From an uncultured Anaeroplasma sp. (GTDB taxonomy: Bacteria; Bacillota_I; Bacilli_A; Acholeplasmatales; Anaeroplasmataceae), in NCBI GenBank assembly GCA_945920825.1, contig CAMEKD010000001.1, positions 1 through 53,618 on the forward strand: DNA of 53,618 bases, in the 5' to 3' direction. A model generated the notes under the pieces. The model did no database searches. It saw only the letters and a program-made list of their open reading frames with translations, and was not told where the DNA came from. How positions within the stretch are numbered: the first letter of the stretch is position 1; each line of letters starts with the position of its first letter. A program made the translations under genes and the position numbers. This document shows, in pieces, positions 23,674 to 42,736 of this stretch.

Positions 23674-24780
23674 TTAATCACTATAATTCAAATCTAAATG
23701 AATACTGACATTATAGCCTTCAAATATTTCTTTTGTTTTATTTTCTATATTTGTTATAAATTTTCCCTTATCCGTTACGGTAAAATCAACTAAAACGTCA
23801 AAGGAAATAAATTTCTTTTCATGATCAATAAAAAATCCATGGCATCCTAATGCCCCTTCAAAGGATTTAACAACACCTTGAATTTGCTCATATTTATCCG
23901 TCTCATTATCATCGATTGCGTATATACCTACAGTTAATAAAACATGATATCTTTCGATAATTAGGCTTTGTATTTGCATAGATAAAATATGGATTTCTTC
24001 TGCATTCATCGATGAATCAATTTCTACATGAATCGAGCCCATTGCTTGATCTGGACCATAATTATGTAATACTAAATCGTATGCACCTCTTACACCCTTA
24101 ATGGAGTTTACATCCCTTTTGATTGCCTTAGTAATGGCTGCATCAGGTCTTGCCCCCATGACATGCGATACTGCCTCAAGAAGCATTTCAATACCTGCCT
24201 TAATGATGAATAAGGATATAAGTGCACCAATCCATCCATCAATATTCACCTGCCAAATCAAAGACACTCCAATAGAAATTAATGTGGCGATAGAAATGAA
24301 AGAATCCATTAGAGCGTCTGTACCAGAGGCAACTAAGGATTCAGAATTATATTTCTTACCTCTTCTTCTTGTAAATAGTCCTAAGGCAATTTTTACAACG
24401 ATTGCAGAGTCTACAACAACTGCAGTTACCCAAGAGAACTCAATGTCTATAGGGTGAATAATCTTTTCTACTGCCTCATAACATGAGGCTACACCTGTTG
24501 CTAAAATAATGGCTGCAATAATTATAGTGGAAAAATATTCAATTCTTCCAAAGCCATAAGGATGCTTTTCCGTTGGCTTTTTCTTAGATAATTTAATTCC
24601 AATAATTGTAATAACGCTAGAGATTGCATCACTTAAATTATTAATAGCATCTAATACTACAGACACTGCTCCCGCAATTAAGCCAACAATAGCCTTGCCT
24701 GTTGCAAGGCCTATATTTGCTAAAATGCCAATAATACCCGTTTGGGTAATTTTCTTTTCTCTTTCCTTTAGATCATTCAT
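23674..24780 (-). CDS. Cation diffusion facilitator (CDF/FieF family) transporter
   Basis: DAINNLSD, HPYGFGRIEY, DALMD, HNYGP. Confidence 0.9.
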   Translation of the reverse strand: MNDLKEREKKITQTGIIGILANIGLATGKAIVGLIAGAVSVVLDAINNLSDAISSVITIIGIKLSKKKPTEKHPYGFGRIEYFSTIIIAAIILATGVASCYEAVEKIIHPIDIEFSWVTAVVVDSAIVVKIALGLFTRRRGKKYNSESLVASGTDALMDSFISIATLISIGVSLIWQVNIDGWIGALISLFIIKAGIEMLLEAVSHVMGARPDAAITKAIKRDVNSIKGVRGAYDLVLHNYGPDQAMGSIHVEIDSSMNAEEIHILSMQIQSLIIERYHVLLTVGIYAIDDNETDKYEQIQGVVKSFEGALGCHGFFIDHEKKFISFDVLVDFTVTDKGKFITNIENKTKEIFEGYNVSIHLDLNYSD

Positions 24781-25020: not shown

Positions 25021-25054
25021 AAAAAAGGAATTCCTCAAACGAATTCCTATTTTT
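25021..25054 (-). terminator. Intrinsic terminator closing the polymerase module
   Basis: AGGAATTC-N7-GAATTCCT stem with a U-run, right after the sigma stop. Confidence 0.7.
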
Positions 25055-25058
25055 GAAT

Positions 25059-26078
25059 TTACCTATTGTATGCAAGAAGCATTTTTACAAGATCTTTATT
25101 CCTTTTTAGCTTTGCAAGTGCCTTAGCTTCAATTTGTCTTACTCTTTCTCTTGTCACCTTAACACTACCTAAGGAGGCAATCTCTTCTAATGTTTTTGGA
25201 GTATTTCCATTAAGACCAAATCTATGAATAATCACAAGCTTTTCTCTTTCTGTTAATATTTGATCTAATATATCATTCATATCCCTTTTTAGTGCATTTT
25301 CTATGGAATATTCCAGTGGGGATTTTATATTGTTATCCGGTATAAAATCTCCTAAGGTTGAATCCTCCTCATCACCAACGATAGTATCCATAGATACTGT
25401 ATCATTTTTATAAGAATCCAATTTTAATATTTTTTCTTTACTAAAGCCTGTTTGATTTGCCATTTCCTCTATAGTTGCTTCCATACCGTTATCCTTAAAA
25501 TATTGGTTTCTAGCTTTTCTAAGCCTTCTTATATCCTCACCTATATGAACAGGAAGCCTAATGGTTCTTGTTTGATCAGCTATCGCTCTTGAAATAGACT
25601 GTCTTATCCACCACGTTGCGTAAGTAGAAAAGCGATACCCCTTGGTGTAATCATATTTCATGGCTGCATGCATAAGGCCCATAGAGCCCTCTTGGACTAA
25701 ATCCATAAAATCTATATTATCTAAATAATAATGCTTTGCAATAGATACAACTAATCTTAAATTACTAGATACGATCTTATCGATAGCCATATCCCTTTTA
25801 CTTATTTTTTCTTCTAATTCCTTATAATATTCTAAGGAAATATTATCCTTGCTTGTTTTGTCAATTTCATCCTTTTCTTCCTTAGCAATATTCCCTATAG
25901 CTATAGCCTTAGAAAGCTCGATTTCTGCATCAGAATCTAACAAAGGAATTCTACCTATTTCTATTAAATACATTTTTATAGAATCAGAGGCCCCTACCTT
26001 AGCCTCCTCTAAATCTATTAGCTTTTCCTCTTCGACTAAGGCAGGGTTAAATTCTTCTTGATTCATATCCCTATTCAA
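25059..26078 (-). CDS. RNA polymerase sigma-70 factor, RpoD/SigA-like paralog lacking region 1.1
   Basis: DSIKMYLIEIGRIPLL (1.2), NLRLVVSIAK, DLVQEGSMGL, FSTYATWWIRQ (2.3/2.4), VTRERVRQIE (4.2). Not next to dnaG. Confidence 0.9.
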   Translation of the reverse strand: MNRDMNQEEFNPALVEEEKLIDLEEAKVGASDSIKMYLIEIGRIPLLDSDAEIELSKAIAIGNIAKEEKDEIDKTSKDNISLEYYKELEEKISKRDMAIDKIVSSNLRLVVSIAKHYYLDNIDFMDLVQEGSMGLMHAAMKYDYTKGYRFSTYATWWIRQSISRAIADQTRTIRLPVHIGEDIRRLRKARNQYFKDNGMEATIEEMANQTGFSKEKILKLDSYKNDTVSMDTIVGDEEDSTLGDFIPDNNIKSPLEYSIENALKRDMNDILDQILTEREKLVIIHRFGLNGNTPKTLEEIASLGSVKVTRERVRQIEAKALAKLKRNKDLVKMLLAYNR

Positions 26079-26088
26079 TTCGATAATA

Positions 26089-27891
26089 TCACGCTCCCAT
26101 TACATCCATCATATCCTTCTTTGTAAGTACGCCCTTTTTTGCAAGCATATCCGCAAGGATTAGGATTTCCTTCTTTCTTCTTTTAATAATCTTAGTAACT
26201 CTTCTTACTGCCTTATCCAAAATCCTTTCACTTAATTTCTCGTTATGATACTTCTTAAATGGAGATGTTGGAATAGAATTCGCATAATGACATAAAAGTG
26301 GATTCAATCCCTTATCCCCTAAGGTATTCACTAAGGCTGCAGAGGTATGACGGGCCTTTTCTAAATCACTTTGTGCACCTCTATCGAGTCTCTTAAATAA
26401 GATTTTTTCGGCCAAATAGCCACCAATAGATACATCTAAATCGGCTAAAGCTCGATTTAAATCTCCTATGTCTTCCTTTGTAGATAGAACCTTCACTCTA
26501 CCACCTATAATTGAATTCGTTTCGATAGAGGCCTTATAGAAGCTAAAGTATTTGCTTCTTTCCATTACCACTACTGCGTGCCCTACCTCGTGTACGGCAG
26601 TTAAATAGCGGTCAGATTCACTTGGCTCTTCGCTATCCCCATAATATTCCATTTCTCTTTTATTAATTCTATCGATGATATCTTCAATTTCCTCAACTGT
26701 AGGATTTTCTCCATATCTTAAGCGAACCTCATTTGCGATAGCCTTAATATTGACTGCATTTTCACCCTTAGTAATAAATGCTAAATAATCATAATCCTGG
26801 TTTACATTAATACCCGATTTAGCAAAATAATACTTAAGTAGGCTCTTGCGCTCCTTCTCATTTGGGTTTCCAATGCCAATTAAATAATCTAATCTTCCTC
26901 TTCTTAATAGAGGTGGATATAAATCCTCCATATTATTACAAGTTGCGATGACAAAGATATTCTTATTATCTCCACCAAGTCCATCGAGCTCCGTTAATAG
27001 ATTTCTTGTTTCACCTCTAGAGATTAAATCAATCTCATCAATTAAGATAATGGCCATACCCTTTTGACGCCTTGCAAAATTAAACTTCTCTGTGATTTCA
27101 TCCTGTTCACTAGAGTGTGTACCATCAATCTTGATAATGGTTGCATCAGGGAAAAAGGAGGTGAATGCCTTTGCGAATAAGGATTTACCTGTACCCATTG
27201 GACCGTGAAGCAAGAAGGAATGAGGCAGTGAGATTCCCTTAGCCTCTAAGGCTTCCTTATCATCCCACCAGGATTTCACTAATAATAATTCCTTTTTCAC
27301 TAAATCGTAGCCTGCAATATCAGAAAATGTTACAGGCTCTTGGTATGGTATATGCTCAAGTCTTTTCGATTGGAAGGTATAGGATTCCCTAAATTTACCA
27401 TTTTCTTCTTGAATAGTAAAATTATCAAATTCATCCTTTATATAATATTTACTATTTATACCTTCTAATTTCATATCTCTTCCTGAGGATATTAATACCA
27501 TAGTAGGGTTTAAGGAATTAATATATTCAAGTAGCTCATCCTTAATGTCTCTAAAATTATTCATATTATTAATAAAGATATGAATATCCTTCTTTTCACC
27601 AAAGGATGCAACAATATGATTTACTACTCCTTTAATTTCATCGAGCTTATTATAAAAAACAGAGAATGCATTCCCCATATGCTCATTATCATCCTCATCA
27701 TCTTCTTCTAATTCCACATCATCATCCTCATCATCAAGTCCTTTACTGATGTTAATAAAAATACCATTTTTATTTTCTTTAAGAGGTTCAGATTTATTTT
27801 CTTTAATAGATTCAAAGATTTGATGAATTAAGAATACATCACCAACAATTAAGCTTTTCTTATTATTGAATTCTTTTATTAATTCTTCCAT
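26089..27891 (-). CDS. Soluble FtsH-like AAA+ ATPase / M41 zinc peptidase
   Basis: VTFSDIAG, GPMGTGKS, IDEID, LLRRGRLD, HEVGH, GGYLAE, GAQSDLEKA. No N-terminal TM segments. Confidence 0.85.
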   Translation of the reverse strand: MEELIKEFNNKKSLIVGDVFLIHQIFESIKENKSEPLKENKNGIFINISKGLDDEDDDVELEEDDEDDNEHMGNAFSVFYNKLDEIKGVVNHIVASFGEKKDIHIFINNMNNFRDIKDELLEYINSLNPTMVLISSGRDMKLEGINSKYYIKDEFDNFTIQEENGKFRESYTFQSKRLEHIPYQEPVTFSDIAGYDLVKKELLLVKSWWDDKEALEAKGISLPHSFLLHGPMGTGKSLFAKAFTSFFPDATIIKIDGTHSSEQDEITEKFNFARRQKGMAIILIDEIDLISRGETRNLLTELDGLGGDNKNIFVIATCNNMEDLYPPLLRRGRLDYLIGIGNPNEKERKSLLKYYFAKSGINVNQDYDYLAFITKGENAVNIKAIANEVRLRYGENPTVEEIEDIIDRINKREMEYYGDSEEPSESDRYLTAVHEVGHAVVVMERSKYFSFYKASIETNSIIGGRVKVLSTKEDIGDLNRALADLDVSIGGYLAEKILFKRLDRGAQSDLEKARHTSAALVNTLGDKGLNPLLCHYANSIPTSPFKKYHNEKLSERILDKAVRRVTKIIKRRKKEILILADMLAKKGVLTKKDMMDVMGA

Positions 27892-27918
27892 ATATTCTCC
27901 TTTGTAGTAGTTTTACAT

Positions 27919-27950
27919 TATCTATATATATTCAGTTACCCCTTTTGCAA
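27919..27950 (-). promoter_or_regulatory. Putative promoter, module motif copy 2 (TTGCAAAAGG-N11-ATATATAGATA)
   Basis: Lies upstream of the FtsH-like gene RBS. Both boxes and the spacing match the copy at 36240-36271. Confidence 0.6.
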
Positions 27951-27970
27951 CCAAAAGAAAAAGGATTTGT

Positions 27971-30691
27971 TTAGTACAAATCCTCATATTCATCTAGATA
28001 ATCTTCATATGGATTATCATCTAAATAGAATTCATCATCATCAATAGAATCTATAGCATCGCTTGCTTCTAAATCCTGATCGAATAGAGCCATTTTATGG
28101 CCAAATAATGTTATATATTCCTTGTCCTTATCCGTTTTCATCCTTAGGCCTGGTTTTTTATAATCCCTACCTAATAGATCTTTAAATTTAGAGCCTTCCC
28201 TACACATAAAATAATATAAAAGAATCCAAGCATAGGATATATTATTCTTAGAATAATCATCTAGCTTTCTTATAGCCATTCTCGCTCTATTCTTATTATT
28301 GATACACTTTATGACTTCTTTCTCATGTTCATCTAAAATTCTTTGGAAGCCAGCATTCATATTCATGAATACATCCTCCCTCATTTTTAAGCCCTTCTTC
28401 TCTTCTTTGAATTTTGAATCAATTTCTTTCACCAATTCATCTAATTTATCTATAGCCTTTTTATCATGTCCATTATATTTTTTAGGATATGGGGATGAAA
28501 TGAGACTCTCGAAGGTTACTTCCTTTTCCTCACTATTCGTCAGAGGATGATCCAAAAGATATTTCACCATATAATCTAGGCCAACCTCCATACCATTTTT
28601 CATCTTAAGAGAATTCTTCTTTTCACTTTTTTCAAGGCATAATGGCATTTTTGGCCAATTGGATTTCTTTATATCTCCATTCTTATCCTTATATTCGTAG
28701 CAATATTTCTCATTTAAATTAGAAATAATCAAAGAGGTCTCTAATGGATATGGCCTTTTGGCTGAATCAATTTCCATATTAGATAATACGGCTAAAATGC
28801 AAATATCCTTATAGATATCCTCTAATTTAGGGTCATTTTTATTCTTATGAAATGTATCCCAATAAAGACAATTTAAGCAGGTCGCATAATTTACTACTGT
28901 TCCTACCTTATTATTACTAATCTTGCTGTCGGGTTTTGATAGATCAACCCTAAAGCTTTGGATATCCGATTCCTTTATAGGCTCAACTAAATTTACTGGT
29001 ACCTTAAAGCGATTCTCATTTTCTTTTGCTCTTTTATAAAGAATAGGATTATTGGTCATCATGACGGAATCAGAATCAAAATCCATTCCATTTAATCTTT
29101 GTAATATATTATGGTTAATAGAATTTACTACTACAATTTCCTTAGATAAATTGAAATAGTCATCTATGATAGGAAGATTCTTATTCTTTGTAACCCATAA
29201 ATTACCCATAGTAATATGAGGATATCTTATTATAGTTAATGCCTCACCATCACTAAAGCCTTTAGAATAGATTTCTTTATTTAATAATAGGGATTCAGGA
29301 TTATTATAATTAAATGGAGTTATCTTATCTTTTATTAATTTATCTGTATCTGCAAGAGCAATTAAAAATTCATAAGGGTTAGATAATACGGTTGCATATC
29401 TGCCTTCAATTAGAATTCTTCCCTTTTTATATTCCTTTAATAAATTATCCGTTTGGTATCTTCTAAAATCCTTAATTAATGGAGTATAGTAAAGGTCTTG
29501 CTTGCGGTTTAATAAATCCTTTACAATTTGATATTTATAATTTTGGGTCTTTGCATCATCTGAAGGATTCTTCTTATGATTTTGGTTTAAATCATAAGAG
29601 AATACATGAACATCATTTTTAAAGTATTCTCTATACTTTATTGTAGGCTCAAATAAGGATGCAATATCTTCCTTCGTAAGTGCTAGAGTATTTAATAGAG
29701 TATAGGAGCTTTTTACCATATCTCCATCAAAATATTTTGATTTCTTATCAAATTTACAAATACCAAATTCCTCTTCGAAGGTTGGATCAGAAATCCATTT
29801 GTTAAATTGTGCTTCTAGATTATCCTCTTCTGCAAATTTTAAATATTTTAGTGAGGAATAGGTACAAACAAGCTTAATATCTTCTATTCTTTCTGCTAGA
29901 GTAAAGAAGCCCTTTTTCTTTTTTAATCCACCTAAAGTTGCATATTTCTTTAGCCACTTTTGAAGCTTTGTGTTAAAGGCACAGCATTTAAAGAATTTAT
30001 TTCTAAGAAGCATCATAGAATGAGGCTCATCAAGCTGTTTGAAGCAGGATTCATCTAATAATCCTTCTCCATCCCAAATGGTATTTTCAATTTCAACTAC
30101 CTTTTCTTCTACAGTTAAATCACCCTCACCAAAAACGGCATAGCAATCCTCCTTAAAGTTGGATTTCGCATCAGGAATAATTAAAATAGCTTTCTTTGGA
30201 ATTTTTACGGATGCACAAATATTCGATAGGGTTAATGCTTGATAGGATTCAAAGGAAACAGGGTTTTCCATAACCTTTTTATTATCATAGCTTAATCCAG
30301 CTAATGCCCAAGCCTCCATTTTCTCCTTGTATTTTTCTTGAATGAAATAGCAGTTACCTTCTCTTGCAGAGGAGGCGGTTCTTTTATATCTGACGTAATG
30401 AATGCCTTTAATATTAAAACCCTCTTCATAAAGAAGAGCTCTGTTTTTTTCCATACTCCTACTAGAGGAAAAGGATACCTGGACAAGCTCCGTTATGGAG
30501 TCTAGATTTGTATTCTCTTTATCCTTATCTTGGTTAATTTCATATAATAGCCTTCTAGATTCCATAGAATCAGAAAATATGGATCTATGAGAAATAGATT
30601 CTTTGCTTGGATCCTTTAGACCTGAAATATTTCGATTTTGCTTCATAATTTCACTTGCTGATAGATGCCATATATATCTTCCACTTATCAT
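27971..30691 (-). CDS. Single-subunit two-barrel RNA polymerase, YonO-like / eukaryotic RdRP homolog
   Basis: Motifs in the RdRP order: IWDGEG (~aa207), LRNKFFKC, IIRYPH (~489), RLNGMDFDSD (DxDxD, ~537-541), GTVVN, EIDSAK (~642). Confidence 0.8.
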   Translation of the reverse strand: MISGRYIWHLSASEIMKQNRNISGLKDPSKESISHRSIFSDSMESRRLLYEINQDKDKENTNLDSITELVQVSFSSSRSMEKNRALLYEEGFNIKGIHYVRYKRTASSAREGNCYFIQEKYKEKMEAWALAGLSYDNKKVMENPVSFESYQALTLSNICASVKIPKKAILIIPDAKSNFKEDCYAVFGEGDLTVEEKVVEIENTIWDGEGLLDESCFKQLDEPHSMMLLRNKFFKCCAFNTKLQKWLKKYATLGGLKKKKGFFTLAERIEDIKLVCTYSSLKYLKFAEEDNLEAQFNKWISDPTFEEEFGICKFDKKSKYFDGDMVKSSYTLLNTLALTKEDIASLFEPTIKYREYFKNDVHVFSYDLNQNHKKNPSDDAKTQNYKYQIVKDLLNRKQDLYYTPLIKDFRRYQTDNLLKEYKKGRILIEGRYATVLSNPYEFLIALADTDKLIKDKITPFNYNNPESLLLNKEIYSKGFSDGEALTIIRYPHITMGNLWVTKNKNLPIIDDYFNLSKEIVVVNSINHNILQRLNGMDFDSDSVMMTNNPILYKRAKENENRFKVPVNLVEPIKESDIQSFRVDLSKPDSKISNNKVGTVVNYATCLNCLYWDTFHKNKNDPKLEDIYKDICILAVLSNMEIDSAKRPYPLETSLIISNLNEKYCYEYKDKNGDIKKSNWPKMPLCLEKSEKKNSLKMKNGMEVGLDYMVKYLLDHPLTNSEEKEVTFESLISSPYPKKYNGHDKKAIDKLDELVKEIDSKFKEEKKGLKMREDVFMNMNAGFQRILDEHEKEVIKCINNKNRARMAIRKLDDYSKNNISYAWILLYYFMCREGSKFKDLLGRDYKKPGLRMKTDKDKEYITLFGHKMALFDQDLEASDAIDSIDDDEFYLDDNPYEDYLDEYEDLY

Positions 30692-30700
30692 ATAAAACTC

Positions 30701-31861
30701 CTACTTTTTCATAATTGCTACTTTCCCATAAGGTGGTTTTACCTCATCGTTTGTCAAAAGCCAAAGAAGGGGTATATTCCCCTTTTCCTCTTCTTTGGGG
30801 AATGTGGCATAGCCATCCGTTAATATAATTAAATATTTTGGTTTATTTTCCATTTGCATCACATATCGAAATACATTATGGAAGGAAGTGCCTCCACCAC
30901 CCTTTGGTATTATTTTAGTTAAATCTATGGAGCTATCAAATGGAATGGGCTCATAAACCTTTGCATCAAAAAAGCCTATAAGGCCCTTAAGCCTGCCCTC
31001 AAATGCTTGAATCGCACCATTGATTTCGCTATAAACCAATGTAATATCCTCTATCGACATAGAGCCTGAGGTATCTACCATGAATAATACATCCTCTAAA
31101 TTTTCATCCATTTCACTAAAGCTTGGCATAAAGAATTCCGCGTCATATCTTCTATCTGGTGGAGTAAAGGTATAATCATTGATTTCAAATTCAATAAATT
31201 CATTTAAAAGCTCTCTCCAGTTTACTCTAGATTCCTTTAGCTCCTTGACTAATCTTTCTACACCAAATGGAATAGAGCCAACCCCGGGCTTACCATTTTG
31301 GTGTGCTCTATCCTCCATATCCTTAATGGCAATGATTTTCGCATTGACATCATCTTCTCTTTCCTTATCCATTTCCCATTTCGAATGATCATCAAACCCT
31401 AAGGACGGAATTCTGTTTCCGTTTTTCAAAAGCTTTTCATAAACCTCTTCTGCAGTAAATAGATATCCTTCCTTACCTTCAATTTGATGCATAGAGATAT
31501 TCCCATTTACCTTGATAGCATCTAAATTCATTCCCTTAGACTTTAGGATATTGGAATTCACTACAATATCACAAGCGATATTAAATAACTCCTGATTATA
31601 TTTTAAGCCTCTTTTGCAATGCTTTAGGGCTACATGCATAACCTCATGCATTAAAACGAAATCAAGCTCCATGTCGGATAAAGATTCCATAAATTTTGGG
31701 CTAAAGCAAATTTTTTCTCCATCGGTATAGGCTGTATCACAGCCAGGATCTAAGCCAAAGGCCATGTTTTCTAGCATAATACCATAAAATCCATAATTGG
31801 TAAGAATTCTTATTCTAGCAAGTAATAATCTTCTTTGATATTCTTTCATACTAGATTGCAT
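30701..31861 (-). CDS. Zincin-like metallopeptidase plus vWA domain protein (DUF2201-like)
   Basis: TAYTDG, HEVMH, FNIACD..VN, DDHSKW, VNWRELL. MIDAS motifs VDTSGSM, GGGTSF and LTDG. Confidence 0.88.
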   Translation of the reverse strand: MQSSMKEYQRRLLLARIRILTNYGFYGIMLENMAFGLDPGCDTAYTDGEKICFSPKFMESLSDMELDFVLMHEVMHVALKHCKRGLKYNQELFNIACDIVVNSNILKSKGMNLDAIKVNGNISMHQIEGKEGYLFTAEEVYEKLLKNGNRIPSLGFDDHSKWEMDKEREDDVNAKIIAIKDMEDRAHQNGKPGVGSIPFGVERLVKELKESRVNWRELLNEFIEFEINDYTFTPPDRRYDAEFFMPSFSEMDENLEDVLFMVDTSGSMSIEDITLVYSEINGAIQAFEGRLKGLIGFFDAKVYEPIPFDSSIDLTKIIPKGGGGTSFHNVFRYVMQMENKPKYLIILTDGYATFPKEEEKGNIPLLWLLTNDEVKPPYGKVAIMKK

Positions 31862-32963
31862 CTAGGAATCTTCCCTTCTCTCTTAGCCACTTCATAAATT
31901 CAGGGATTTTTAATAGCTTTTGCTTATAATCCTTTTCTAAATATAAATAATCCTTAAGTAATACAATCGAATAATCCGGTGGTAGCATATTTGCATATAA
32001 TATACTATTTCTGATTAAATCTAAATCATCTCTATGATGATATGCATAGGCAACCATAGAGGATTCTAGTGCGTATAATACGTCTGGTTCCTTGGGTACT
32101 TTAGTTTCTTCTCCTTTGAATATTTTTTCAATATTCGGTAATTTCGAATAGACCTTTGTATAGGTTCTAAGCTCAGTTGCAAGACCTTTACCTAAAATAC
32201 CTGCAAGTAAATCGAAGACATCCTTAAAATCATAGGATACCGTATTTAAGATATTCGATGCTAATTCCCAAGATCTTGGTGTTGCAAAAACAATACCATT
32301 ATCCTGGGGATTAAAGGTATTTAAGCAATCGGGCTTAAAGCGCAAAAATCCTAAGATATATTCATGAATTCCTTTAGAGATTGCCCAGTTATGCCATGAG
32401 TCTGGGTCTACAGCTACCTCTAAATGTAATAAACGATTGGCAAGTGCCTTTGGCATTTGGTAGGCAACCGATTTATCGGTTACTCTATTTCCTGCCGCAA
32501 GAACAATACAGTTTTTGGGGAGTTTATGCTCACCAACCATACGGTCTAGGGTAATTTGGTATGCTGCTGCTTGTACGGATTGTGGGGCCGCACTAATCTC
32601 ATCTAAGAATAAAATGTTGATGACATCTTCACTTTCATCCATTTGGAATATTTTAGGCTTTAACCAAACCGCTAGGGTTTTATCCTCGTTTGCGGTTGGA
32701 ATACCTCTTAAATCGATTGGATTAAATAGAATTAATCTTACATCAATTACATTACATCTTTTCTTTAATCCTAATTCTAAATCACAAGCTAAATCATGAA
32801 TGGCTTGGGATTTACCAATACCAGGCTGACCCCAAAGCATTACGGAAGGTAATGCCTTTAGGGGTACATTCTTTTCTATTGCTCTTGCATACATTTTATA
32901 TAATATTTTTCTTACATCCCCTGGGTTTAATACAGGAACATTTCCAATTGTTGTTTTATCCAT
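31851..32963 (-). CDS. MoxR-like (AAA_5) AAA+ ATPase
   Basis: WGQPGIGKS, DLRGIP, LFLDEI, AAGN, ALANRL, TPRSW. Confidence 0.88.
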   Translation of the reverse strand: MDKTTIGNVPVLNPGDVRKILYKMYARAIEKNVPLKALPSVMLWGQPGIGKSQAIHDLACDLELGLKKRCNVIDVRLILFNPIDLRGIPTANEDKTLAVWLKPKIFQMDESEDVINILFLDEISAAPQSVQAAAYQITLDRMVGEHKLPKNCIVLAAGNRVTDKSVAYQMPKALANRLLHLEVAVDPDSWHNWAISKGIHEYILGFLRFKPDCLNTFNPQDNGIVFATPRSWELASNILNTVSYDFKDVFDLLAGILGKGLATELRTYTKVYSKLPNIEKIFKGEETKVPKEPDVLYALESSMVAYAYHHRDDLDLIRNSILYANMLPPDYSIVLLKDYLYLEKDYKQKLLKIPEFMKWLREKGRFLDAI

Positions 32964-35900
32964 TGATGTTTAACTCCTTTTCTATAGCCTTTATTTCTCT
33001 TGCTAAGGACTCTATTGCAGAGGAATAATCTGGTTTCTTTAATACCTCTTCCTCAATCGCAATCTTTCTATTCTTTAAATCTAATAAATTACTATCTGAT
33101 GTATCTAATCTTTCCTTCATAGAATTTAAATAATTATCGATTCTTGGTAATATACCCATTTCTGAATTACCCATAGTTACCATATAGGTACCCTTACCCT
33201 TTAATCTTAGGAATAGATAATTGGCAAGCATATTGTCTGGATAATATACCTTAAATCCTTGGTAATCCATGATATATTCCTCTTCTTCCATATTTAAATG
33301 CTCCATTAAACCAGTCCATAAAATTTTGCGAATTTCTGTTCTTTTTTCAGTAGTATACTCCTGTTTGTTTTCCTCATAGAGGATAACATCCTCTTGTAAA
33401 TTAGAAACACGACTTTCTTGTTCTTCAATTTTTGTAGGTAATTGCATTAATTCTCTTTCAAGTAGAGTAAATCTTGCCTCTGTTCTCTTTTGTAATAGCT
33501 TAAGCTTATTTAATTGATTTGTTTTATCCGCATAATCTTTAAGTCTAGGAGATCCTATAGCTAATGCCTTAACCTCACCATAGCTTAATACAGTATCTGC
33601 GATATCATCCTTAGATCTATCTGTTAATGCATTCGATAATAAATCATTAATAAATCTTTGCTTAGTTTCAAGTAGCTGCCAAGAATATGCATCAAAGGAG
33701 CCTTCTAAGATATATCTATGAATAAAGACCTCTTTATTTTGATTCTTTTGTCTTATAATTCTTCCTTCTCTTTGCTGCATATCCGATGGTCTCCAAGGAA
33801 TCGATAGGTGATGAATCGAATATAGCCTATCCTGTACATTTACACCTGTACCAAGCTTTTCCGTTGAACCGATTAATACTCTTACCTCTCCATCTCTTAC
33901 CCTTTTAAATAGTTTCGTTCTTTTTGCCTCTGTTGTAGCATTATGTATATATTCAATTTCGCTATCCTTAATACCAAATTGAACAAGCAATCTTTTTACC
34001 TCATCATATACATTAAAGCCATCCTTGGGAGTACCAATGTCTGAGAAAACTAATTGAGTGCCCTTGAATGAATTTGTTGTCAAATAATCCTTTAATATGT
34101 TTTGACAGCATGCATATATTTTACCTTTAGTTTCATTCTTATAGGTAACCTCATCAATTAAACGCATATCTAAGGCTGCCTTTCTACCATCGGTTGTAAC
34201 CTTAAGTAGATTATCATCCTTCCTAGATATTCTATGATTTCTTATATCCTCAACTCTTATAGAAATATTAGCTAAATAATCCTTAAAGCCTTGCGTTTTC
34301 TTAATTAATGTATCTGTATATGCATCAAATTTAGGTAGCTCATCGCTATTCTTAGTGTAATAGAAATCACAAACCTCAGATAATATCTGTGTTAATTCAG
34401 GTAAATTATGAAATCTTGAGAACCTGGTATTTACTCTATAGCCTTGGGTATCTAAATCAATCTCAAGCTCCTCGTGAGCTTCAGCAAATTGGCTACTCCA
34501 GTTATCAAAGGTATCAATATCTAATAGCTTTAATTCTGAATTTTGTAAATAGCGCTGTATCGCATAGCAATCCGTAACGGAATTCGTTATTGGAGTACCA
34601 GATGCTAAAATTACGCCACCATCATTTTTGTTTAAATAATCGATAACCTCAAGCATATGCATACATTTCTTAGACCCTTGGGTATTTAAGCCTGCAATTT
34701 CACCCATATGAGATACTAATGGGATATTCTTATAATTATGTGCCTCATCGACAAATAATCTTGTAATACCTAATTTATCGAAGGAAATATCTTCATCACT
34801 ATTCTCTCCTTCCTTAATTAAATCGCTAAGCTTTTCCTCTAAAGATTTTAAATAACGGTCTAAGGTTTTTGTTTGATATTTAGGATCCTTAGCTTCTAGA
34901 TTTAAAACCTCTTGAATTTGCTTTTCCAAATTCAATTTCTTTTCCTCAAAGGATAAGGGTATAGAATCAAAGGAAGAATGAGGAATAATAATAGATTTAT
35001 ATTCGGAATCTCTTATAAGCTCTAATGTTTTTCTTCTATTCTGTGTTGAAAAATCTGTTGACTTTAGGCTTAAGAATTTCGCAGTAGGATATAAATAGGA
35101 ATAGGCCTCTGCCCATTCACCTGTAATGGTATTCGGAACAACAAATAAATTCTTTTTCGATTTAGAGGTTCTAAGTAATTCCTCACCACCCGCAATCATT
35201 TCGTAGGTTTTACCTGCACCTACATTATGTGCAAGATAGGTATTTTTGGTTAAAAGAATTCTTGCGACGGCATTCTTTTGGTAATCAAATAGGGTAACCT
35301 TAGGGTTAATACCCTTAAAATCAATAAAATTGCCATTAAAGATTCTAGATACATTGTAGCCAAATAATGTATTATAGGCTTCTACTAGCTTATCCTTATA
35401 TTCATACCTTTCATCAATCCACTGATGGAATTTTTCTTCCATAGCACGAGCCTTTTCCTGTAAAAGAAGAGTTTCTTCCTTATTTAGGATGTTTACAGTT
35501 TTTAGTTTACCATTATTATCATAATTTCTTTTAATATCATATACCGTTAGCTTTTTACTATTTAATAGTCGTTCTAAAATTTGAGTAACTTTAACTCTAG
35601 AGGTTCCATAGCTTAAATTATAGCGATAGCTCGCTAAATAATCAGGAATCTCCCAAATACCTGTAATGGTATCATGTAAAATCATTTCCTTTGCGGAATC
35701 TGTTTTACCTAAAATAGAACAAATAAAGCTTCTAATGATATCATGAGGAATCCAAGGGGAGGATAGCTTATAATAGATTTGATCGATATCTACACCCTTA
35801 GGTAATATTTTTAAAATGGCATCAATATTATCCTGAAATGCACCATTATAAATTTTATTGGCTTCTTGAGCACTTCTTAATTTTGTTAAAAGATTGCCAG

Positions 35901-36213
35901 ATAGGTATTCCTCACTCGTTAAGAAGCCCTTATAATATACACCCTTAAATAAGGTAGGGTCTTGAAATATAGCCCCTCTTAATCTTTTAATACAATCCTC
36001 TAAGGAAATTCCTGTAATTTTAGATATGTATTCAATATCTACCTTACCTAAATTCTTTAAGGAATATAAAAGACCATCGCCTGCAGATTCTGCATGAACC
36101 TCTTCTATTTTATCCTCATTATCTACCTCGAGAATATCCCAATCTAGTGGTAGGTCAACGGGATTATCGAATTCAACAGTACTATCTTCAATGAATTTTT
36201 TTGTATATTGCAT
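32956..36213 (-). CDS. SNF2-family helicase of the ICE/phage methylase-helicase (DarB-like) type, without a methyltransferase domain
   Basis: EYLSGN, YQKNAV, AHNVGAGKT, VDEAHNYKN, ASGTP, QLVFSD, GTGVNVQ, PWRPSDMQQREGRIIRQ. Confidence 0.85.
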   Translation of the reverse strand: MQYTKKFIEDSTVEFDNPVDLPLDWDILEVDNEDKIEEVHAESAGDGLLYSLKNLGKVDIEYISKITGISLEDCIKRLRGAIFQDPTLFKGVYYKGFLTSEEYLSGNLLTKLRSAQEANKIYNGAFQDNIDAILKILPKGVDIDQIYYKLSSPWIPHDIIRSFICSILGKTDSAKEMILHDTITGIWEIPDYLASYRYNLSYGTSRVKVTQILERLLNSKKLTVYDIKRNYDNNGKLKTVNILNKEETLLLQEKARAMEEKFHQWIDERYEYKDKLVEAYNTLFGYNVSRIFNGNFIDFKGINPKVTLFDYQKNAVARILLTKNTYLAHNVGAGKTYEMIAGGEELLRTSKSKKNLFVVPNTITGEWAEAYSYLYPTAKFLSLKSTDFSTQNRRKTLELIRDSEYKSIIIPHSSFDSIPLSFEEKKLNLEKQIQEVLNLEAKDPKYQTKTLDRYLKSLEEKLSDLIKEGENSDEDISFDKLGITRLFVDEAHNYKNIPLVSHMGEIAGLNTQGSKKCMHMLEVIDYLNKNDGGVILASGTPITNSVTDCYAIQRYLQNSELKLLDIDTFDNWSSQFAEAHEELEIDLDTQGYRVNTRFSRFHNLPELTQILSEVCDFYYTKNSDELPKFDAYTDTLIKKTQGFKDYLANISIRVEDIRNHRISRKDDNLLKVTTDGRKAALDMRLIDEVTYKNETKGKIYACCQNILKDYLTTNSFKGTQLVFSDIGTPKDGFNVYDEVKRLLVQFGIKDSEIEYIHNATTEAKRTKLFKRVRDGEVRVLIGSTEKLGTGVNVQDRLYSIHHLSIPWRPSDMQQREGRIIRQKNQNKEVFIHRYILEGSFDAYSWQLLETKQRFINDLLSNALTDRSKDDIADTVLSYGEVKALAIGSPRLKDYADKTNQLNKLKLLQKRTEARFTLLERELMQLPTKIEEQESRVSNLQEDVILYEENKQEYTTEKRTEIRKILWTGLMEHLNMEEEEYIMDYQGFKVYYPDNMLANYLFLRLKGKGTYMVTMGNSEMGILPRIDNYLNSMKERLDTSDSNLLDLKNRKIAIEEEVLKKPDYSSAIESLAREIKAIEKELNING

Positions 36214-36239
36214 AGAATAACCTCCTTATTCGAAATCAC

Positions 36240-36271
36240 TATCTATATATCGAAATATATTCCTTTTGCAA
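36240..36271 (-). promoter_or_regulatory. Putative promoter, module motif copy 1 (TTGCAAAAGG-N11-ATATATAGATA)
   Basis: Lies upstream of the AAGGAGG RBS of the helicase. Matches the copy at 27919-27950. Confidence 0.6.
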
Positions 36272-36467
36272 GAGAATAATATAGCTTATTTTGACATTAT
36301 TCGTGTCTAAAAGAAAAAAAGTTTTATTTTTTATTATATTCATTATAATAGAATTCATTAATGAATTCTAGAGAAGTGAAATTATTTTAATAATATATTC
36401 TATAACAGGAAAACGTTTTGTTACAGGCTTACAGCCTAAAATGTGCTATACTCGTTATGGTGATACT

Positions 36468-37835
36468 ATGACAAAGGATTTAACATGCGGTAAGCCAAGC
36501 AAAGTGATTTTCACGTTTTGTCTTCCACTTTTCGCATCCGTAATTTTTCAACAATTATATAATATTGCAGATTCCTTGGTTGCAGGAAATTTTATCGAAA
36601 ATGGAGAATCTGCCATAGCCGCGATCGGTAATTCCTATGAGATTACCTTAGTTTATTTAGCGTTTGCCTTTGGCTGTAATATGGGGTGCTCCGTCATTGT
36701 TTCTAGATTCTTTGGGCAAAAGGCAATCAACAAAGCTAAAGCCTCTATTTACACTGCCTTAATTACAACGACCATTACCTGCCTAATCCTGATGGTTTTA
36801 GGATTAACCTTAGGAGAGACGATATTAAGATTAATTAAAACTCCAGAAAACCTACTAGCTGATTCTAAGCTATATTTAGATATTTATACCTACGGCTTAT
36901 TATTTGTATTTATATATAATTTATGTACTGGAATATTTAGCGCCTTTGGCGATTCCAAAACGCCATTCATATTCTTAGCTATTTCTTCTATAGCTAATGT
37001 ATTTATGGATATAGTATTTGTTGTGGAATTTCAAATGGGTATTGCAGGTGTTGCCTGGGCAACCTTCATTTGTCAGGGAATATCTAGCATTCTATCCTTT
37101 GTTATTGTTTTATATAGAATTAAAAAATTAAAGCCATTTGAAAATGAAATAGATACGGTAAAGCCGTTTGATTTTAGACTACTTAAAACCATGCTTATAA
37201 TAGCTATTCCATCGATTTTGCAGCAATCCTTTGTCTCTATAGGGAATATTCTAATTCAATCCGTAATTAATTCCTTTGGGGAATCAACTATGGCTGGGTA
37301 TAGTGCCGTAATTAAGCTGCAAAATTTGGTCGTAACTGGGCTTACTACCCTAAGTAATGGCATTTCAAATTACACTGCACAAAACCTAGGTAGGGGCAAA
37401 ATAGAGCGTATCAGGCCCGGGTTTATATCTGGGCTAAAGCTTACTCTAATTTTAATTATTCCATTTTCCATTATCTATTTCTTCTTTGGTAAATATATTG
37501 TACAAATCTTCTTAAAGGAAGGTACATCAAGTGATGCCATAGAGATTGCGAACAATTTCTTAAGAATCATCGCGCCATTTTATATTTTAGTTGCGACAAA
37601 ACTAATTGCAGATGGTGTAATTCGAGGATATGCCAAAATGGGACTATTCATGACAGATACCTTCTTAGATTTGTTTTTAAGAGTAGGCCTTGCCTTCCTC
37701 TTCCCTTATGTATTCCATTTAGGTTCAAATGGAATATGGCTTTCTTGGCCTATTGGTTGGGGCTTATCGATGGGGCTTGCTGTAATCTTCTATATTTTCG
37801 TTACAAAGGATAAAAATAAAAATCTATATGAGTAG
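36468..37835 (+). CDS. MATE family efflux transporter
   Basis: KDLTCGKP, FQQLYNIADS, GDSKTP, MGIAGVAWAT. About 12 TM helices. Confidence 0.92.
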   Translation: MTKDLTCGKPSKVIFTFCLPLFASVIFQQLYNIADSLVAGNFIENGESAIAAIGNSYEITLVYLAFAFGCNMGCSVIVSRFFGQKAINKAKASIYTALITTTITCLILMVLGLTLGETILRLIKTPENLLADSKLYLDIYTYGLLFVFIYNLCTGIFSAFGDSKTPFIFLAISSIANVFMDIVFVVEFQMGIAGVAWATFICQGISSILSFVIVLYRIKKLKPFENEIDTVKPFDFRLLKTMLIIAIPSILQQSFVSIGNILIQSVINSFGESTMAGYSAVIKLQNLVVTGLTTLSNGISNYTAQNLGRGKIERIRPGFISGLKLTLILIIPFSIIYFFFGKYIVQIFLKEGTSSDAIEIANNFLRIIAPFYILVATKLIADGVIRGYAKMGLFMTDTFLDLFLRVGLAFLFPYVFHLGSNGIWLSWPIGWGLSMGLAVIFYIFVTKDKNKNLYE

Positions 37836-38877: not shown

Positions 38878-40259
38878 TTACTTTATTACCTTCCAATAAC
38901 CGGTTTTGTTAGAACCAACTCTCTCAATAATACTATTTTTTCTTAGGAAAGCTATAATATTATCTATTGAAGTTTTTCCTAAATCACATTTTACCATCAA
39001 TTCTGGTTTAGTAATATTTGTGTTATTTCTTATCTCAGCTAACACTTTTATTTGAGAGATGTTAAGATTCATATCACCCATTTTATCACCCACTTTATCA
39101 CCCACTTTATTGATTCTATTAAATGGGATTGTGACTAATATAGTATCATCGGATATATCAATAGCGTCTTTTCCATACACTTCAATTATTTTAGGTATCC
39201 CTAACCTGTTTTTTCACTTATGTGTAATTGCAAAAATATTTCTGATAATTTTTCATTTACAGGAATTGAATGTCCTTTATAAAAACCATTAATTGTCTGA
39301 AGTGGGGCTAATTCCCCTCTAGATAATATTTCTATTCTATCATTATAAATAGCAATCATAGGTTCATTTAAACCAATCCATCTATTATGTAGGAATGCAT
39401 TTATTACTGCTTCTCTATAGACATCATAATCAAATAGCATGACTTCTTCACGTTCCATTATTCTATTATCTTCTTTGGTCTGTGGAACATTCAATATTTC
39501 TCCATAATTTAATACTTCATATAAAGAATACAATAAGCATTTATAACCAAATTCTTTTACAGAATACATTTTACTTGCTTTTGTTTTACCATCAAATATA
39601 GCGACTCTAATTGGCACATATGAATTATCGGATAGCAATTGAGCCATGATATTATATTTACCATCCTTAGTTAATAGATGAAGATTAGCTTTAAAATTAT
39701 TCTTATTTAAAGTTATTCCCTTAGATGAGTAATAGTTAAATAACTGATTAAATGTTAGATCTTGATATTCAGATTCCTTATTGGTAATTGTTGGAAGGCC
39801 AAATGTTAGAACAGAAAATAGGAAAGCTTCTCTTTGCGGATATTTTTTTAGATTTTCTTTGCTAGATCCTATTCTTATATATCTAATACCATCAAAATCA
39901 GTTGGGACTATCTTAGCTGCTGGTATAGTAAGAACTACAATTCTTTTTCCACCTACTATAGCTTCATCAAAATAAAAAGGAATACTGGGTGATATTTTCC
40001 TAGCTAAATAATGTTGAATAGGTTCTCCATTATTATCAGCATTATAATTAATAACAGTACCTGTAATATTATGCGATCTGTTGTCAATTCCCCAAATCAT
40101 ATAGGCATTAGGCTTACCTAATATAGCAGCACTATTTGAAAGGGCAGAAATATATTGACCCACATCATCAATAACAAACATATTTTCTTCATATTCTACC
40201 CATTCAAGTTCATCATCGTAACTTAAGCATTCATTTAAAATCTTATTTATATCATTCAT
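38878..40259 (-). pseudogene. AlbA_2/Schlafen-like domain plus HATPase_c_4 plus wHTH protein, split by a 1-nt frameshift near 39203
   Basis: ELEWVEYEEN, YISALSN, MIWGID, YIRIGSS, REAVINAFLH, EKTG, then GIPKII..YG, KVGD repeats and ERVGSNKTGYWKV. ATG 40259 follows GGTGA. Confidence 0.8.
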
Positions 40260-40602
40260 TTTTATCACCCACCATATTACGAATATATTACACAATACCA
40301 TGGGTGATAAAGCAATGATTATAAACACAGCATTTAATATATTTACGATTACTAAAAAGTACAATAGTATACCACTTACATAATTTATATATGGTGTCAT
40401 ACAATGTCGAGTGGACTCAAACTGAATCCATTTTTTATCCACCACCAAATGATTTTTAGTGTATAAAGGTGTATCCACCAAAATGATATCGAAGAATTGT
40501 AAAAACCGGACGAAATTGACGTTTTGTACAAAATATCGCGACAAACCGGATAATATGTAACGCCATAGACAAACAAAACGATATTTTTCAGGATTCATTT
40601 GA

Positions 40603-40645
40603 ATCCTAAGCTAGTGTCTTGCGTTCGAATCGATAGGGAACGCCA
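40603..40645 (+). other. Degenerate tRNA-Arg(CCT)-like 3' half, copy 1 (att-like scar)
   Basis: ATCCTAAGC...GTTCGAATCG...GGGAACGCCA. Near-identical to 42742-42784. Confidence 0.5.
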
Positions 40646-40961
40646 TAAAGATATTAAAAGGGGCTGTTAAGAAACCAAAAAGTTTCTAGGAGCTTTCTTT
40701 TGCATAAAATCATTGTTACAATAGAAAAATGTGTTTAATCTTGGCTTTTACTAACTATTTTAAAGTCTTCCTCTCAATAAAACCAAGCGGAGTTTCTTAA
40801 CAATGTGATTGTTAAGCTTTTTTACTAATAAAAATATACAAATTTAGAGCCATTTTTCACTAAGTTTCTTAACAACATAGTTGTTATTTCACAAAATATA
40901 TAGAAAAAGGGTTATTAAGAAATTGTTAGTTTCTTAACAGCCCCTTTTTAGTATTTATGGC
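40642..40961. mobile_element. MITE-like segment bounded by ~33-bp imperfect inverted repeats
   Basis: GCCATAAAGATATTAAAAGGGGCTGTTAAGAAAC (40642) versus the reverse complement of 40929-40961. Internal GTTTCTTAACAA boxes at ~40792 and ~40864. No ORF. Confidence 0.45.
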
Positions 40962-41110
40962 CTTTTGATTTCATATAATTTAAAACTTCAAAATATTCTT
41001 TTAAAGTTTTAAATCAAAGTAATTTCATTTTCTTCATTTGAATGCCTTGAACAAGAGGCTACAGCATATATTTTACATCCTTCTAGAGCCGTTTTTTTAA
41101 TATTATAAGA

Positions 41111-42469
41111 TCAAAGAACTGAAGCCATATAGTATGGCAAATAGATAATTTCTTCTTCTCTTTTTATATCTCCATCATATAAAACATATTGTAACCCAAC
41201 TTTGCTACTAAAACATTTTTTAAATTGCTTTAGCGAAGACAAAGAATACGCCTTAGATGATTTTACTTCAATAGGTATTAATTTATTATCGCGCCTAATT
41301 AAAAAATCTATTTCCATAATAGTTTGTTTCTTTTCTTTATCTGTTTTTTTATAATAATATATGTTGTCCCCATTTTTTCTTAATTCTTGGGCAGTAATAT
41401 TTTCTATTATCATTCCCTCGTTAACATGTAATCTATCTAATAATATTGCCTTGTACAATTCATTGTTTAAATAATCTTGATTCTTATATGCTAATGATAT
41501 TAATAGGCCAGTATCACCCATATAACATTTAAATGCTGGATCAATAGTTGAAAGATTGAATGCAGCACTTGGATCACTAACATTTTCAGCAACATTAACT
41601 GTCATTGACTCAATTAACCAGTTGATAGGACCTTTATATTCTCTTAGTCTGGCATTCGTATCAACATGCGACAAATTATATCTCTTATCATGCTTTGATA
41701 ATTCAGATGGAATATGCCAAAAAACATTTTTGACATATTCTGGGTTTTCTTCTTCTTGTTCATCTATATCTGATTCATATAGATTTAATATTCCTTGTTT
41801 AACGAAATCAACCTCACCATAATCAGAAGTTTTTATATACTTATAGACAGCCTGAGGCATACCACCCACTAGCATATATTCTCTATATGCTCTCATTAAT
41901 GATCTATGAGCAGTTCCTATCGGTTTTAATTTATTATAATGGTCTTTTATTAATTCATAAGAAAACGAATCACCTTTTGCCCATAAAAATTCTTCAAAAT
42001 CCATAGGATATATGTTTAATGCATATTCCTCTGAGGGAATTAGTATTTTCTTAGATTTTTTCTTTATTGTTGCAAGAGACCCGGTTTCAATGTAATCATA
42101 TCTCTTATCTTCTAAAAGAGTTTTTAAGGCTTGTCTAGCTAAAGGAAATAATTGGATTTCATCTAAAATTATTAACGATTCTCTCTCGTATAATTTTTTC
42201 TTATAAAAAACTTGTAAGGTATTAAATAGATTATCTAAATCTTCCAACGAATTGACAAAAAGATTTTTTATTTCATCTGGAGCCTTATCAAATCTTATTA
42301 ATATATATGATTTGTATTTTTCTTTTCCTATCTTTTCTGCGAGTGTTGATTTACCAACACGTCTTGCTCCCTTCAAAAATAAAGCATAATCAGGTGCTCT
42401 TTTTTCTTTCCATTCTAGTATTTTATCATATGCTTTTCTTTTAAATTCAATATCTAATTGCTCATCCAT
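41111..42469 (-). CDS. AAA_14 ATPase with DUF4143 and C-terminal PD-(D/E)XK-like domain
   Basis: FKRKAY, GARRVGKST, ILDEIQ, ETGS, YPMDFEEF, VGGMP, YMGDTG, EIDF..IPIEVKS. ATG 42469 follows GAGGAG. Confidence 0.88.
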   Translation of the reverse strand: MDEQLDIEFKRKAYDKILEWKEKRAPDYALFLKGARRVGKSTLAEKIGKEKYKSYILIRFDKAPDEIKNLFVNSLEDLDNLFNTLQVFYKKKLYERESLIILDEIQLFPLARQALKTLLEDKRYDYIETGSLATIKKKSKKILIPSEEYALNIYPMDFEEFLWAKGDSFSYELIKDHYNKLKPIGTAHRSLMRAYREYMLVGGMPQAVYKYIKTSDYGEVDFVKQGILNLYESDIDEQEEENPEYVKNVFWHIPSELSKHDKRYNLSHVDTNARLREYKGPINWLIESMTVNVAENVSDPSAAFNLSTIDPAFKCYMGDTGLLISLAYKNQDYLNNELYKAILLDRLHVNEGMIIENITAQELRKNGDNIYYYKKTDKEKKQTIMEIDFLIRRDNKLIPIEVKSSKAYSLSSLKQFKKCFSSKVGLQYVLYDGDIKREEEIIYLPYYMASVL

Positions 42470-42480
42470 AACAACTCCTC

Positions 42481-42558
42481 CACATTTGCGAACCTTTTTC
42501 AAACTTATTTTATCACATTTGCGAACTTTTTTCAAACTCATTTTATCACATTTGCGAA
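42481..42558. repeat. 33-bp-period tandem repeat upstream of the DUF4143 ATPase
   Basis: CACATTTGCGAA starts at 42481, 42514 and 42547, with near-identical spacers. Confidence 0.85.
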
Positions 42559-42736
42559 AACAATTTAATTGATATATTTTTTCCATAAAGTTGGAGTTCC
42601 ACTTACTACACCCATTTTCAAACAAATTTTCCACTAATTTTCCACCAAAATGAAATAAAAGATATGGACGTTATACAAAAAGCTATATAATTTGTGGAAG
42701 ACATTTGGCACTATAAAAGCTATTTTATCATTTTTT

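Follow-up and report, generated by a model that had tools for sequence, protein, structure and literature searches.

A YonO-like two-barrel RNA polymerase in a chromosomal cassette of an uncultured Anaeroplasma, with a candidate WYL-type damage box ahead of its operon

Introduction

YonO of the Bacillus subtilis prophage SPbeta was described as a strictly DNA-dependent, processive late-gene RNA polymerase that transcribes the operon downstream of its own gene; its preference for DNA templates is even stricter than that of E. coli RNA polymerase (PMC5467207). Two-barrel polymerases share eight invariant residues (four Asp, two Arg, Lys and Pro), which in QDE-1 of Neurospora are D709, R738, K743, R962, P964 and D1007/1009/1011 (PMC2919709); QDE-1, with QDE-3, makes damage-induced aberrant RNA from single-stranded DNA (ssDNA) (PMC9508822). 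Genes resembling RNA-dependent RNA polymerases (RdRPs) were found by Iyer and Aravind in bacterial selfish elements, and a primase role was held plausible for them, as summarised in PMC3417536. The present work concerns a gene of this superfamily in a stretch of 53,618 nt, referred to as the window, of contig CAMEKD010000001.1 (assembly GCA_945920825.1) from an uncultured Anaeroplasma sp.; the gene occupies positions 27971..30691 of the minus strand. The assembly (G000, 154 contigs) is 92% complete, which sets the scope of all genome-wide negative results given below.

Chromosomal YonO-like proteins of Firmicutes are already in print (PMC2919709, PMC5467207, PMC3417536), and homology alone is therefore unsurprising; their role was called an enigma in PMC2919709 and was speculated in PMC5467207 to be the transcription of specific gene sets under stress. 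As regards damage control, the PafBC regulator responds to ssDNA and has the motif tGTCgg-N10-tA-N3-T (PMC8635444); DriD is similar to PafBC (PMC7617703). The literature listings searched showed no paper dealing with the DxDSD clade to which the window polymerase belongs, with the MobL elements of this clade or with a YonO-like gene under WYL control; Iyer 2003 and Iyer and Aravind 2012 may bear on the neighbourhoods.

The reading preferred here, with a probability of roughly 0.4, is that of a likely active, likely DNA-dependent, probably phage-derived polymerase in a chromosomal cassette, the first operon of which is likely driven by a WYL-type damage activator, the enzyme then transcribing a private set of genes. 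The regulatory context, overlooked by a first-pass annotation made from the letters of the window, is the more novel part: the probable operon is headed by a palindrome placed 11 nt before a -10 box, an arrangement common to addBA, dinB and a tnpB-like gene of the same genome.

Results

Polymerase and catalytic residues. The open reading frame (ORF) encodes a chain of 906 amino acids with no internal stop and with an acidic, disordered C-terminal tail. The motifs follow each other as WDGEG (D207), R230 and K235, RYPH (R489, P491), DFDSD (D537, D539, D541) and IDSAK (D642, K645), that is, in the order of QDE-1 and the plant RDR enzymes, as the first-pass annotation had it; the first-barrel residues are encoded at 29987..30073, the RxP motif of the second barrel at 29219..29227 and the catalytic loop at 29069..29083, exactly where it had been placed (all on the minus strand). 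D207, R230, K235, R489, P491, D537, D539 and D541 are invariant in an alignment of 63 rows (the query and 62 of 120 listed relatives) and correspond to the eight residues of QDE-1, with equal spacing between R and K (5) and between R and P (2). The same annotation had noted all three metal-binding Asp, which are indeed present, and a Ser in place of the usual Gly; the latter is not unusual in this family but its norm, S540 being invariant (63/63 rows) and the loop residue of 136 full-length (≥700 aa) profile-search representatives being Ser in 117 and Gly in 5 (14 without a motif match), and the idea of a lesion or private oddity was rejected on these counts. A further count of 125 DxDSD loops in 130 labelled rows was not relied on; it is biased, the loci having been fetched with a pattern that contains the motif.

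Profile searches. Pfam gave only a spurious sub-threshold match for the polymerase, and the search for PF05183 that the annotation had proposed gave no match at E 0.01; NCBIfam and PADLOC had no match either, and the expectation that automated pipelines would miss the gene was borne out for the Pfam RdRP family and NCBIfam. The gathering cut-off of PF05183 was passed by two of three relatives pre-flagged for that family, and the family is present on 24–32% of the members of atlas neighbours. PHROGs returned the unnamed phrog_8308 (E 1.6e-70) and, over residues 469–548, phrog_4291, labelled 'RNA-dependent RNA polymerase' (E 2.6e-7). Alignment of profiles with SPbeta YonO (hhalign) gave probability 97, E 1.1e-10, 511 columns and 22% identity; YonO was absent by tblastn among the phage matches listed. 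A search with residues 60–680 yielded 1,080 relatives among 8,000 candidates scored, and the profile matched 1,904 clusters at 50% identity, phage members included; the clade is unnamed in NCBIfam.

Fold. Sequence and profile searches of solved structures gave nothing meaningful. In a Foldseek search with the AlphaFold model (predicted local distance difference test, pLDDT, 80.7; predicted template modelling score, pTM, 0.81), RDR2 and QDE-1 ranked first (E 1e-13 to 1e-9). Structural comparison (VIA) gave: RDR2, Z 22.5 (592 aligned, root-mean-square deviation (rmsd) 6.4); QDE-1, Z 19.5 (613 aligned, rmsd 4.3); Thermus phage gp64/gp62, Z 15.7; phi14:2, a crAss-like phage polymerase of the kind that the first-pass annotation had named with QDE-1 as a comparison to make, Z 11.6; cellular polymerases, about 8.5. 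A two-barrel fold with the DxDxD loop between a helix and a strand is predicted, the barrels being read from matches of the whole model. The significant YonO profile alignment and the top ranks of RDR2 and QDE-1 in the fold search show that the motif match is not due to chance. Membership in the two-barrel superfamily is virtually certain; the claimed homology to YonO and eukaryotic RdRPs stands on profile, fold and residue conservation together.

Selection. The ratio of nonsynonymous to synonymous substitution rates (dN/dS) of the polymerase against the congener G001 was 0.21, 0.25 and 0.31 over 519, 508 and 214 codons, respectively, and that of the cassette neighbours 0.11–0.26 (a sigma fragment of 46 codons, 0.05, left out); dS was similar across the compared genes, with the exception of one divergent 3' allele. 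The cassette is under purifying selection, and the values for the polymerase fit an active enzyme; catalytic activity is considered very probable. Close alleles diverge in the C-terminal third (47–78% identity in the most divergent ones). At 28000–28700 of the window and on G001 contigs C119 and C140 (L156, L157) the C-terminal alleles are mosaic (down to 47–70%) next to genes about 90% identical or more, which suggests recombination or diversifying selection. Genes engaged in conflict often diverge sharply between close alleles.

Relatives and ancestry. Two sets of loci were compared: 79 genome loci, taken from the best 80 of 215 matches, and 71 viral loci; the counts of neighbouring genes are lower bounds, many contigs being short, and L158 and L047 are the same stretch, counted once. 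Terminase genes were found in none of the 79 genome loci vs 52 of the 71 viral ones; the MobL relaxase, in 28/79 vs 0/71. The usual gene order at the genome loci is polymerase, HTH_36, excisionase, MobL/MobP3 relaxase and two tyrosine integrases. The tree (60 rows chosen from a 136-row tree, redundancy removed by eye; LG+G4, quick search; outgroup YonO, on a long branch) shows a non-viral clade (Shimodaira–Hasegawa-like approximate likelihood-ratio test, SH-aLRT, 100) nested among enzymes of viral contigs; within it, the MobL clade (99) lies in a grade of mostly relaxase-free loci, and it is in this grade that the window protein falls (98, with L047, L012 and L033). Grouping of the window protein with the MobL clade was rejected (approximately unbiased test, p-AU 0.0042), and genes of the MobL element are also absent from the window. 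The closest named match, among the best 80 of 215, is 91% identical and labelled Acholeplasmatales. The non-phage clade is large, unnamed and characterised by the DxDSD loop, and on the present tree it is nested among phage enzymes; a phage origin of the window polymerase is probable. The strict DNA dependence of YonO and the nesting of the clade among terminase-linked phage enzymes favour a DNA template beyond even odds, and DNA-templated synthesis by the window enzyme is regarded as probable by analogy; RNA-templated activity is, on the same analogy, judged unlikely.

Promoter box. The palindrome GACA-N7-TGTC at 36293..36307 (minus strand), a candidate site of the host HTH-WYL-WCX (HTH, helix-turn-helix) regulator, heads the operon, and a -10-like hexamer TATTAT lies 11 nt downstream of it (36276..36281, minus strand). 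The 17-nt stretch upstream of the window helicase that contains this palindrome recurs without change in L158, where it lies between the polymerase and sigma genes. With ≤2 mismatches, the box followed at 11 nt by TAnnnT occurs at four sites of the window genome, vs 0–2 at each of eight other spacings; these sites precede the cassette operon, addB-addA, dinB (Pol IV) and a tnpB-like gene. The exact box was found in 11/40 genomes of the genus (reversed control, 2/40), and 14 of its 23 sites in the genus have TAnnnT at 11 nt. WYL genes are present in 36/40 genus genomes, the window genome having one HTH-WYL gene; among 27 such genes of the genus, 7 have the box ahead of them (shuffle mean 0.1, maximum 1). 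Three further loci, for a total of 30, were left out, two because their flanks were short and one because it gave no alignment. A looser box at the same spacing was found in 6 of the 18 loci of the relaxase-free grade and in 0/52 of the MobL clade; one of nine looser-box sites is antisense. No LexA domain was matched in the window genome, and no box lies directly upstream of recA. Control of the polymerase by the box appears likely on balance.

The sites on contigs C3, C43, C109 and C15 of the window genome (L200, L204, L206, L183) make up a candidate LexA-independent damage regulon with addBA, dinB plus a small downstream gene, and the tnpB-like gene as members; the only HTH-WYL-WCX gene of the genome has a near-site ahead of it. 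A TnpB nuclease with this kind of box before its gene, a combination also seen in G004 (L188), may be domesticated. In L004, L019, L041, L042 and L160, an AAA+ ATPase gene and a tandem series of several proteasome-beta-like genes come after the polymerase gene, and some of these loci also have a kinase–vWA–vWA–PP2C cluster; several of these loci stand behind a TACA-N7-TGTA variant of the box, possibly as an undescribed damage-induced protease system.

Repeat of 35 bp. Two copies were found, both on the minus strand: the first (36237..36271) ends 23 nt before the start codon of the helicase gene, and the second (27916..27950) 24 nt before that of the protease gene. These are the only copies in the window genome, both within the cassette, and both are kept in G001 (search over the genomes of the genus). 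The repeat might be the promoter recognised by the polymerase itself, an assignment that is doubtful at present.

Cassette. Six genes and two terminators of the minus strand make up the cassette, in the order helicase, MoxR, vWA-peptidase, polymerase, terminator, protease, sigma, terminator. The first is a stand-alone SNF2/DarB-type helicase module of 1085 aa with no methylase domain detected (32956..36213); it is followed by a MoxR-type AAA+ ATPase of 370 aa (31851..32963) and by a DUF2201 metallopeptidase–vWA protein of 386 aa (30701..31861), the gene of which stops 9 nt before the polymerase start. An intrinsic-terminator-like hairpin (27961..27985) overlaps the polymerase stop codon. Behind it lie an FtsH-like AAA+/M41 protease (HEVGH) of 600 aa, apparently soluble (26089..27891), and an accessory RpoD-like sigma factor of 339 aa (25059..26078), which shares 44% identity with another RpoD-like protein, encoded on contig C9; a terminator-like hairpin (25026..25048) closes the cassette. 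It is flanked by a cation-efflux gene on the left (23674..24780, minus strand) and a MatE transporter gene on the right (36441..37835, plus strand). In the congener G027 (about 75% identical), these two flanking genes lie about 160 bp apart with no cassette between them; about 11.6 kb were thus inserted here or lost in G027, the borders being known to gene level only. No convincing terminal repeats or att sites were found at the cassette ends; integrase, relaxase and terminase had no match in the window, the flanks being housekeeping genes, and MobL and TerL families had none in the genome. The cassette lies outside any detectable phage or mobilisable element; a prophage remnant was rejected, neither the window nor the genome holding phage genes.

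Judged by gene order, the parts of the cassette are modular: a polymerase–sigma–protease run stands behind an addBA-like pair in L158, and L015 has polymerase–helicase–MoxR–vWA. Among the loci seen, only two lineages have the helicase–MoxR–vWA trio together with the polymerase; an FtsH-like protease with HExGH lies ≤10 kb from the polymerase in five loci of the relaxase-free grade. Contigs of RNA libraries (three runs of one pig-gut study) span much of the cassette and its flanks, the long pieces listed being about 97–99% alike, while the shares of the other runs listed were small; these are contigs alone, with DNA carry-over possible and a depth that does not allow genes to be ranked, and no proof of transcription.

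Neighbouring and related loci. A second island beside MatE (38878–42634), absent at that site in G027, carries a Schlafen/AlbA_2 protein, whose PHROG match runs on into the next short ORF (possibly a split gene), and a DUF4143 ATPase matching PADLOC PDC-S01. Two tandem MutS_V-domain genes (490 and 517 aa) lie at 4362–7384 (minus strand). In the congener G001, about 525 bp are inserted between the sigma terminator and the cation-efflux gene (L177; G001:C103:9922–10448).

A widespread integrative mobilisable element of gut Clostridia (L003, L013, L021, L034 and others) carries a YonO-like polymerase, HTH_36, an excisionase, a Cys-rich VLP protein, MobL/MobP3 and two tandem tyrosine integrases; a conserved terminator stands directly behind its polymerase gene. 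A reverse scan with the MobL relaxase gave 80 loci; in the 34 with most upstream DNA, which were inspected, the slot was occupied by the polymerase in 15 and by another gene in at least 11, three of the latter being an AAA_25 protein. The MobL element does not need the polymerase. A need for the polymerase in terminator read-through before HTH_36 was considered and weakened, since polymerase-free elements have their own sigma-A promoter and a terminator-like leader. L057 holds two RdRP-like genes that differ from each other and lie on opposite strands; one encodes a DxDSD member, the other a DxDGD member of 1015 aa that is very divergent (GADYDGD). The prophage-like L162 (G018:C9) encodes a protein of 1073 aa, the match of which to the polymerase is confined to the regions of the RxP and catalytic loops, and similar short matches were seen in Arthrobacter and Gordonia phages, many of them annotated as helix-turn-helix proteins.

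Discussion

The preferred reading would proceed in four steps. ssDNA arising from damage or from an invading element would activate the host HTH-WYL-WCX protein; this protein would bring host RNA polymerase to the promoter formed by box and -10 hexamer, from which helicase, MoxR, vWA-peptidase and polymerase would be transcribed together as far as the terminator; the polymerase would then make RNA on DNA in the manner of YonO; and, as the least certain step, it would start at the 35-bp repeat, driving the protease–sigma operon and also raising or lowering transcription of the operon that encodes it, in the manner of a late-gene switch domesticated from a phage. From what is known of these families, the MoxR/vWA proteins and the protease would mature or clear the proteins of the module.

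Several observations weigh against it. The 35-bp repeat opens with a sigma-A-like TTGCAA. With 3 mismatches allowed it was still not found in G019, a genome with polymerase, sigma and protease, and in G001 a third copy stands ahead of an unrelated gene; for these reasons it may be an ordinary promoter of the host or of the accessory sigma. The box pattern was partly derived from loci in which it was later counted, 20/27 WYL genes are without the box, the spacing between box and -10 is one base shorter than that of PafBC, and the looser box was also met in 6/67 viral loci (four of them one repeated sequence). The box heads the polymerase's own operon in the window lineage only. The remaining five loci with a box have it ahead of genes that lie downstream of the polymerase, and any damage control over the polymerase itself may have arisen locally, by chance of insertion. 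The gene is rare (6/307 genomes of the order, and in one of the six its surroundings are prophage-like), the window lineage sits on a long stem (0.93), G015 has the helicase–MoxR–vWA–sigma run without the polymerase, and the flanking genes have dN/dS values of 0.04–0.20, most of them below that of the polymerase.

One alternative is damage-induced, sequence-independent RNA synthesis, in which the enzyme, with the SNF2-type ATPase, would make RNA copies of ssDNA exposed at damaged forks or in incoming DNA of phages or plasmids, the RNA serving as primer, signal or toxic product, similarly to the aberrant RNA of QDE-1. The precedent of QDE-1 and QDE-3 (PMC9508822), the rank of QDE-1 and RDR2 as closest solved folds, the box shared with addBA and dinB, the divergent C-terminal third, and defence-type genes in neighbouring islands (the PDC-S01-like ATPase and Schlafen/AlbA in the window; kinase–vWA–PP2C and proteasome-like genes in relatives) are in its favour; however, PADLOC has no model that fits the polymerase, the genome yielded no Argonaute match, the helicase trio stands with the polymerase in just two lineages of the loci seen, and the fold ranking mirrors which structures are solved, with no YonO structure among the matches. 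This explanation is considered rather unlikely. The polymerase might also be a passenger, a functional or slowly decaying cargo gene lodged between the vWA and sigma genes, to which box and neighbours are functionally unrelated. Its patchy distribution, changing neighbours and long branch, the run in G015 and the occurrence of the same MobL backbone with and without it would be accounted for in this way, but a dN/dS well under 1, retention of all catalytic residues, the tight packing (9-nt gap, overlapping upstream genes) with a terminator directly behind the polymerase, the recurrence of the HExGH protease and the enrichment of the box in the grade would not; it is held to be unlikely.

A role as primase of a selfish element, priming replication or second-strand synthesis of mobile DNA, corresponds to the proposal of Iyer and Aravind, stated as plausible in PMC3417536, and agrees with the sister clade heading integrative mobilisable elements, with L056, where the polymerase stands beside a different relaxase and a serine recombinase, and with the AAA_25 protein in the same slot of three distant MobL elements. 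The window copy, however, has no relaxase or integrase near it, its grouping with the MobL clade was rejected and that clade is nested in the relaxase-free grade, the slot is often taken by another gene, and YonO is a processive transcriptase (PMC5467207); such a role is quite improbable here. A true RdRP, making double-stranded RNA for bacterial silencing or amplifying RNA, would agree with the fold and the weak profile similarity to eukaryotic RdRPs, and with the PF05183 matches of two relatives and of the atlas neighbours, yet the strict DNA preference of YonO (PMC5467207), descent from phage enzymes beside late genes, and the lack of a Piwi/Argonaute match in the genome and of an Rfam match in the window make it very improbable.

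The locus supplies an intact enzyme outside a phage, a candidate inducing signal (the WYL-type box) and candidate private promoters, and the clade is a source of small, probably processive polymerases for work on structure and in biotechnology. If the reading preferred here is right, the bacterium has, for its damage or defence response, an RNA polymerase of a second kind. In wider terms, some Bacillota may have taken a phage RNA polymerase into their own service as a second, chromosomal enzyme within a LexA-independent damage response, a WYL/ssDNA signal leading either to transcription from its own promoters or to copying of ssDNA with the SNF2-type partner; this generalisation is speculative and has a modest chance of being true. 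Were it so, bacteria would have an equivalent of the step with which the damage-induced QDE-1 RNA pathway of Neurospora begins, and the system could serve as a living model for the recruitment of eukaryotic RdRPs from selfish elements.

Comparison with known systems

With YonO the window polymerase shares a single chain of about 100 kDa holding both barrels, the same catalytic residues and a tie of expression to DNA damage, which for YonO is prophage induction by mitomycin C and for the window enzyme is predicted from the box. It differs from YonO in the loop (DFDSD vs FDNDGD), in its location outside a prophage, with helicase, MoxR–vWA, protease and sigma genes instead of late genes as neighbours, and in its control, apparently through a host WYL-type box.

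QDE-1 and plant RDR2 (PF05183) are the best fold matches (Z 18–22.5 over about 600 residues) and have the eight invariant residues; in contrast to them, the window protein, at 12–14% identity, has no PF05183 match and no Argonaute was found in its genome. The RNA polymerases of Thermus phages P23-45 (gp64) and P74-26 (gp62) and of crAss-like phi14:2 are likewise single-chain two-barrel enzymes, and DNA-dependent (Z 15.7 and 11.6, respectively); unlike the window enzyme they serve phage transcription, and they are more distant from it than QDE-1 and RDR2.

The selfish-element enzymes of Iyer and Aravind (PMC3417536) resemble it in their non-phage bacterial location and sporadic distribution; they differ in having restriction endonuclease (REase), URI nuclease and RNase H neighbours, whereas the window has no such nuclease or mobility gene and has a damage-type box. 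The MobL/tyrosine-integrase element of the sister clade is not named in the portion of PMC3417536 that was drawn on. As in the PafBC and DriD regulons, a TGTC element is found at a fixed distance from a -10 box with no canonical -35, the putative targets include DNA repair genes and the genome has an HTH-WYL-WCX regulator gene; unlike these regulons, the Anaeroplasma system has a full palindrome, GACA-N7-TGTC, a host from the Bacilli and an RNA polymerase among its putative targets.

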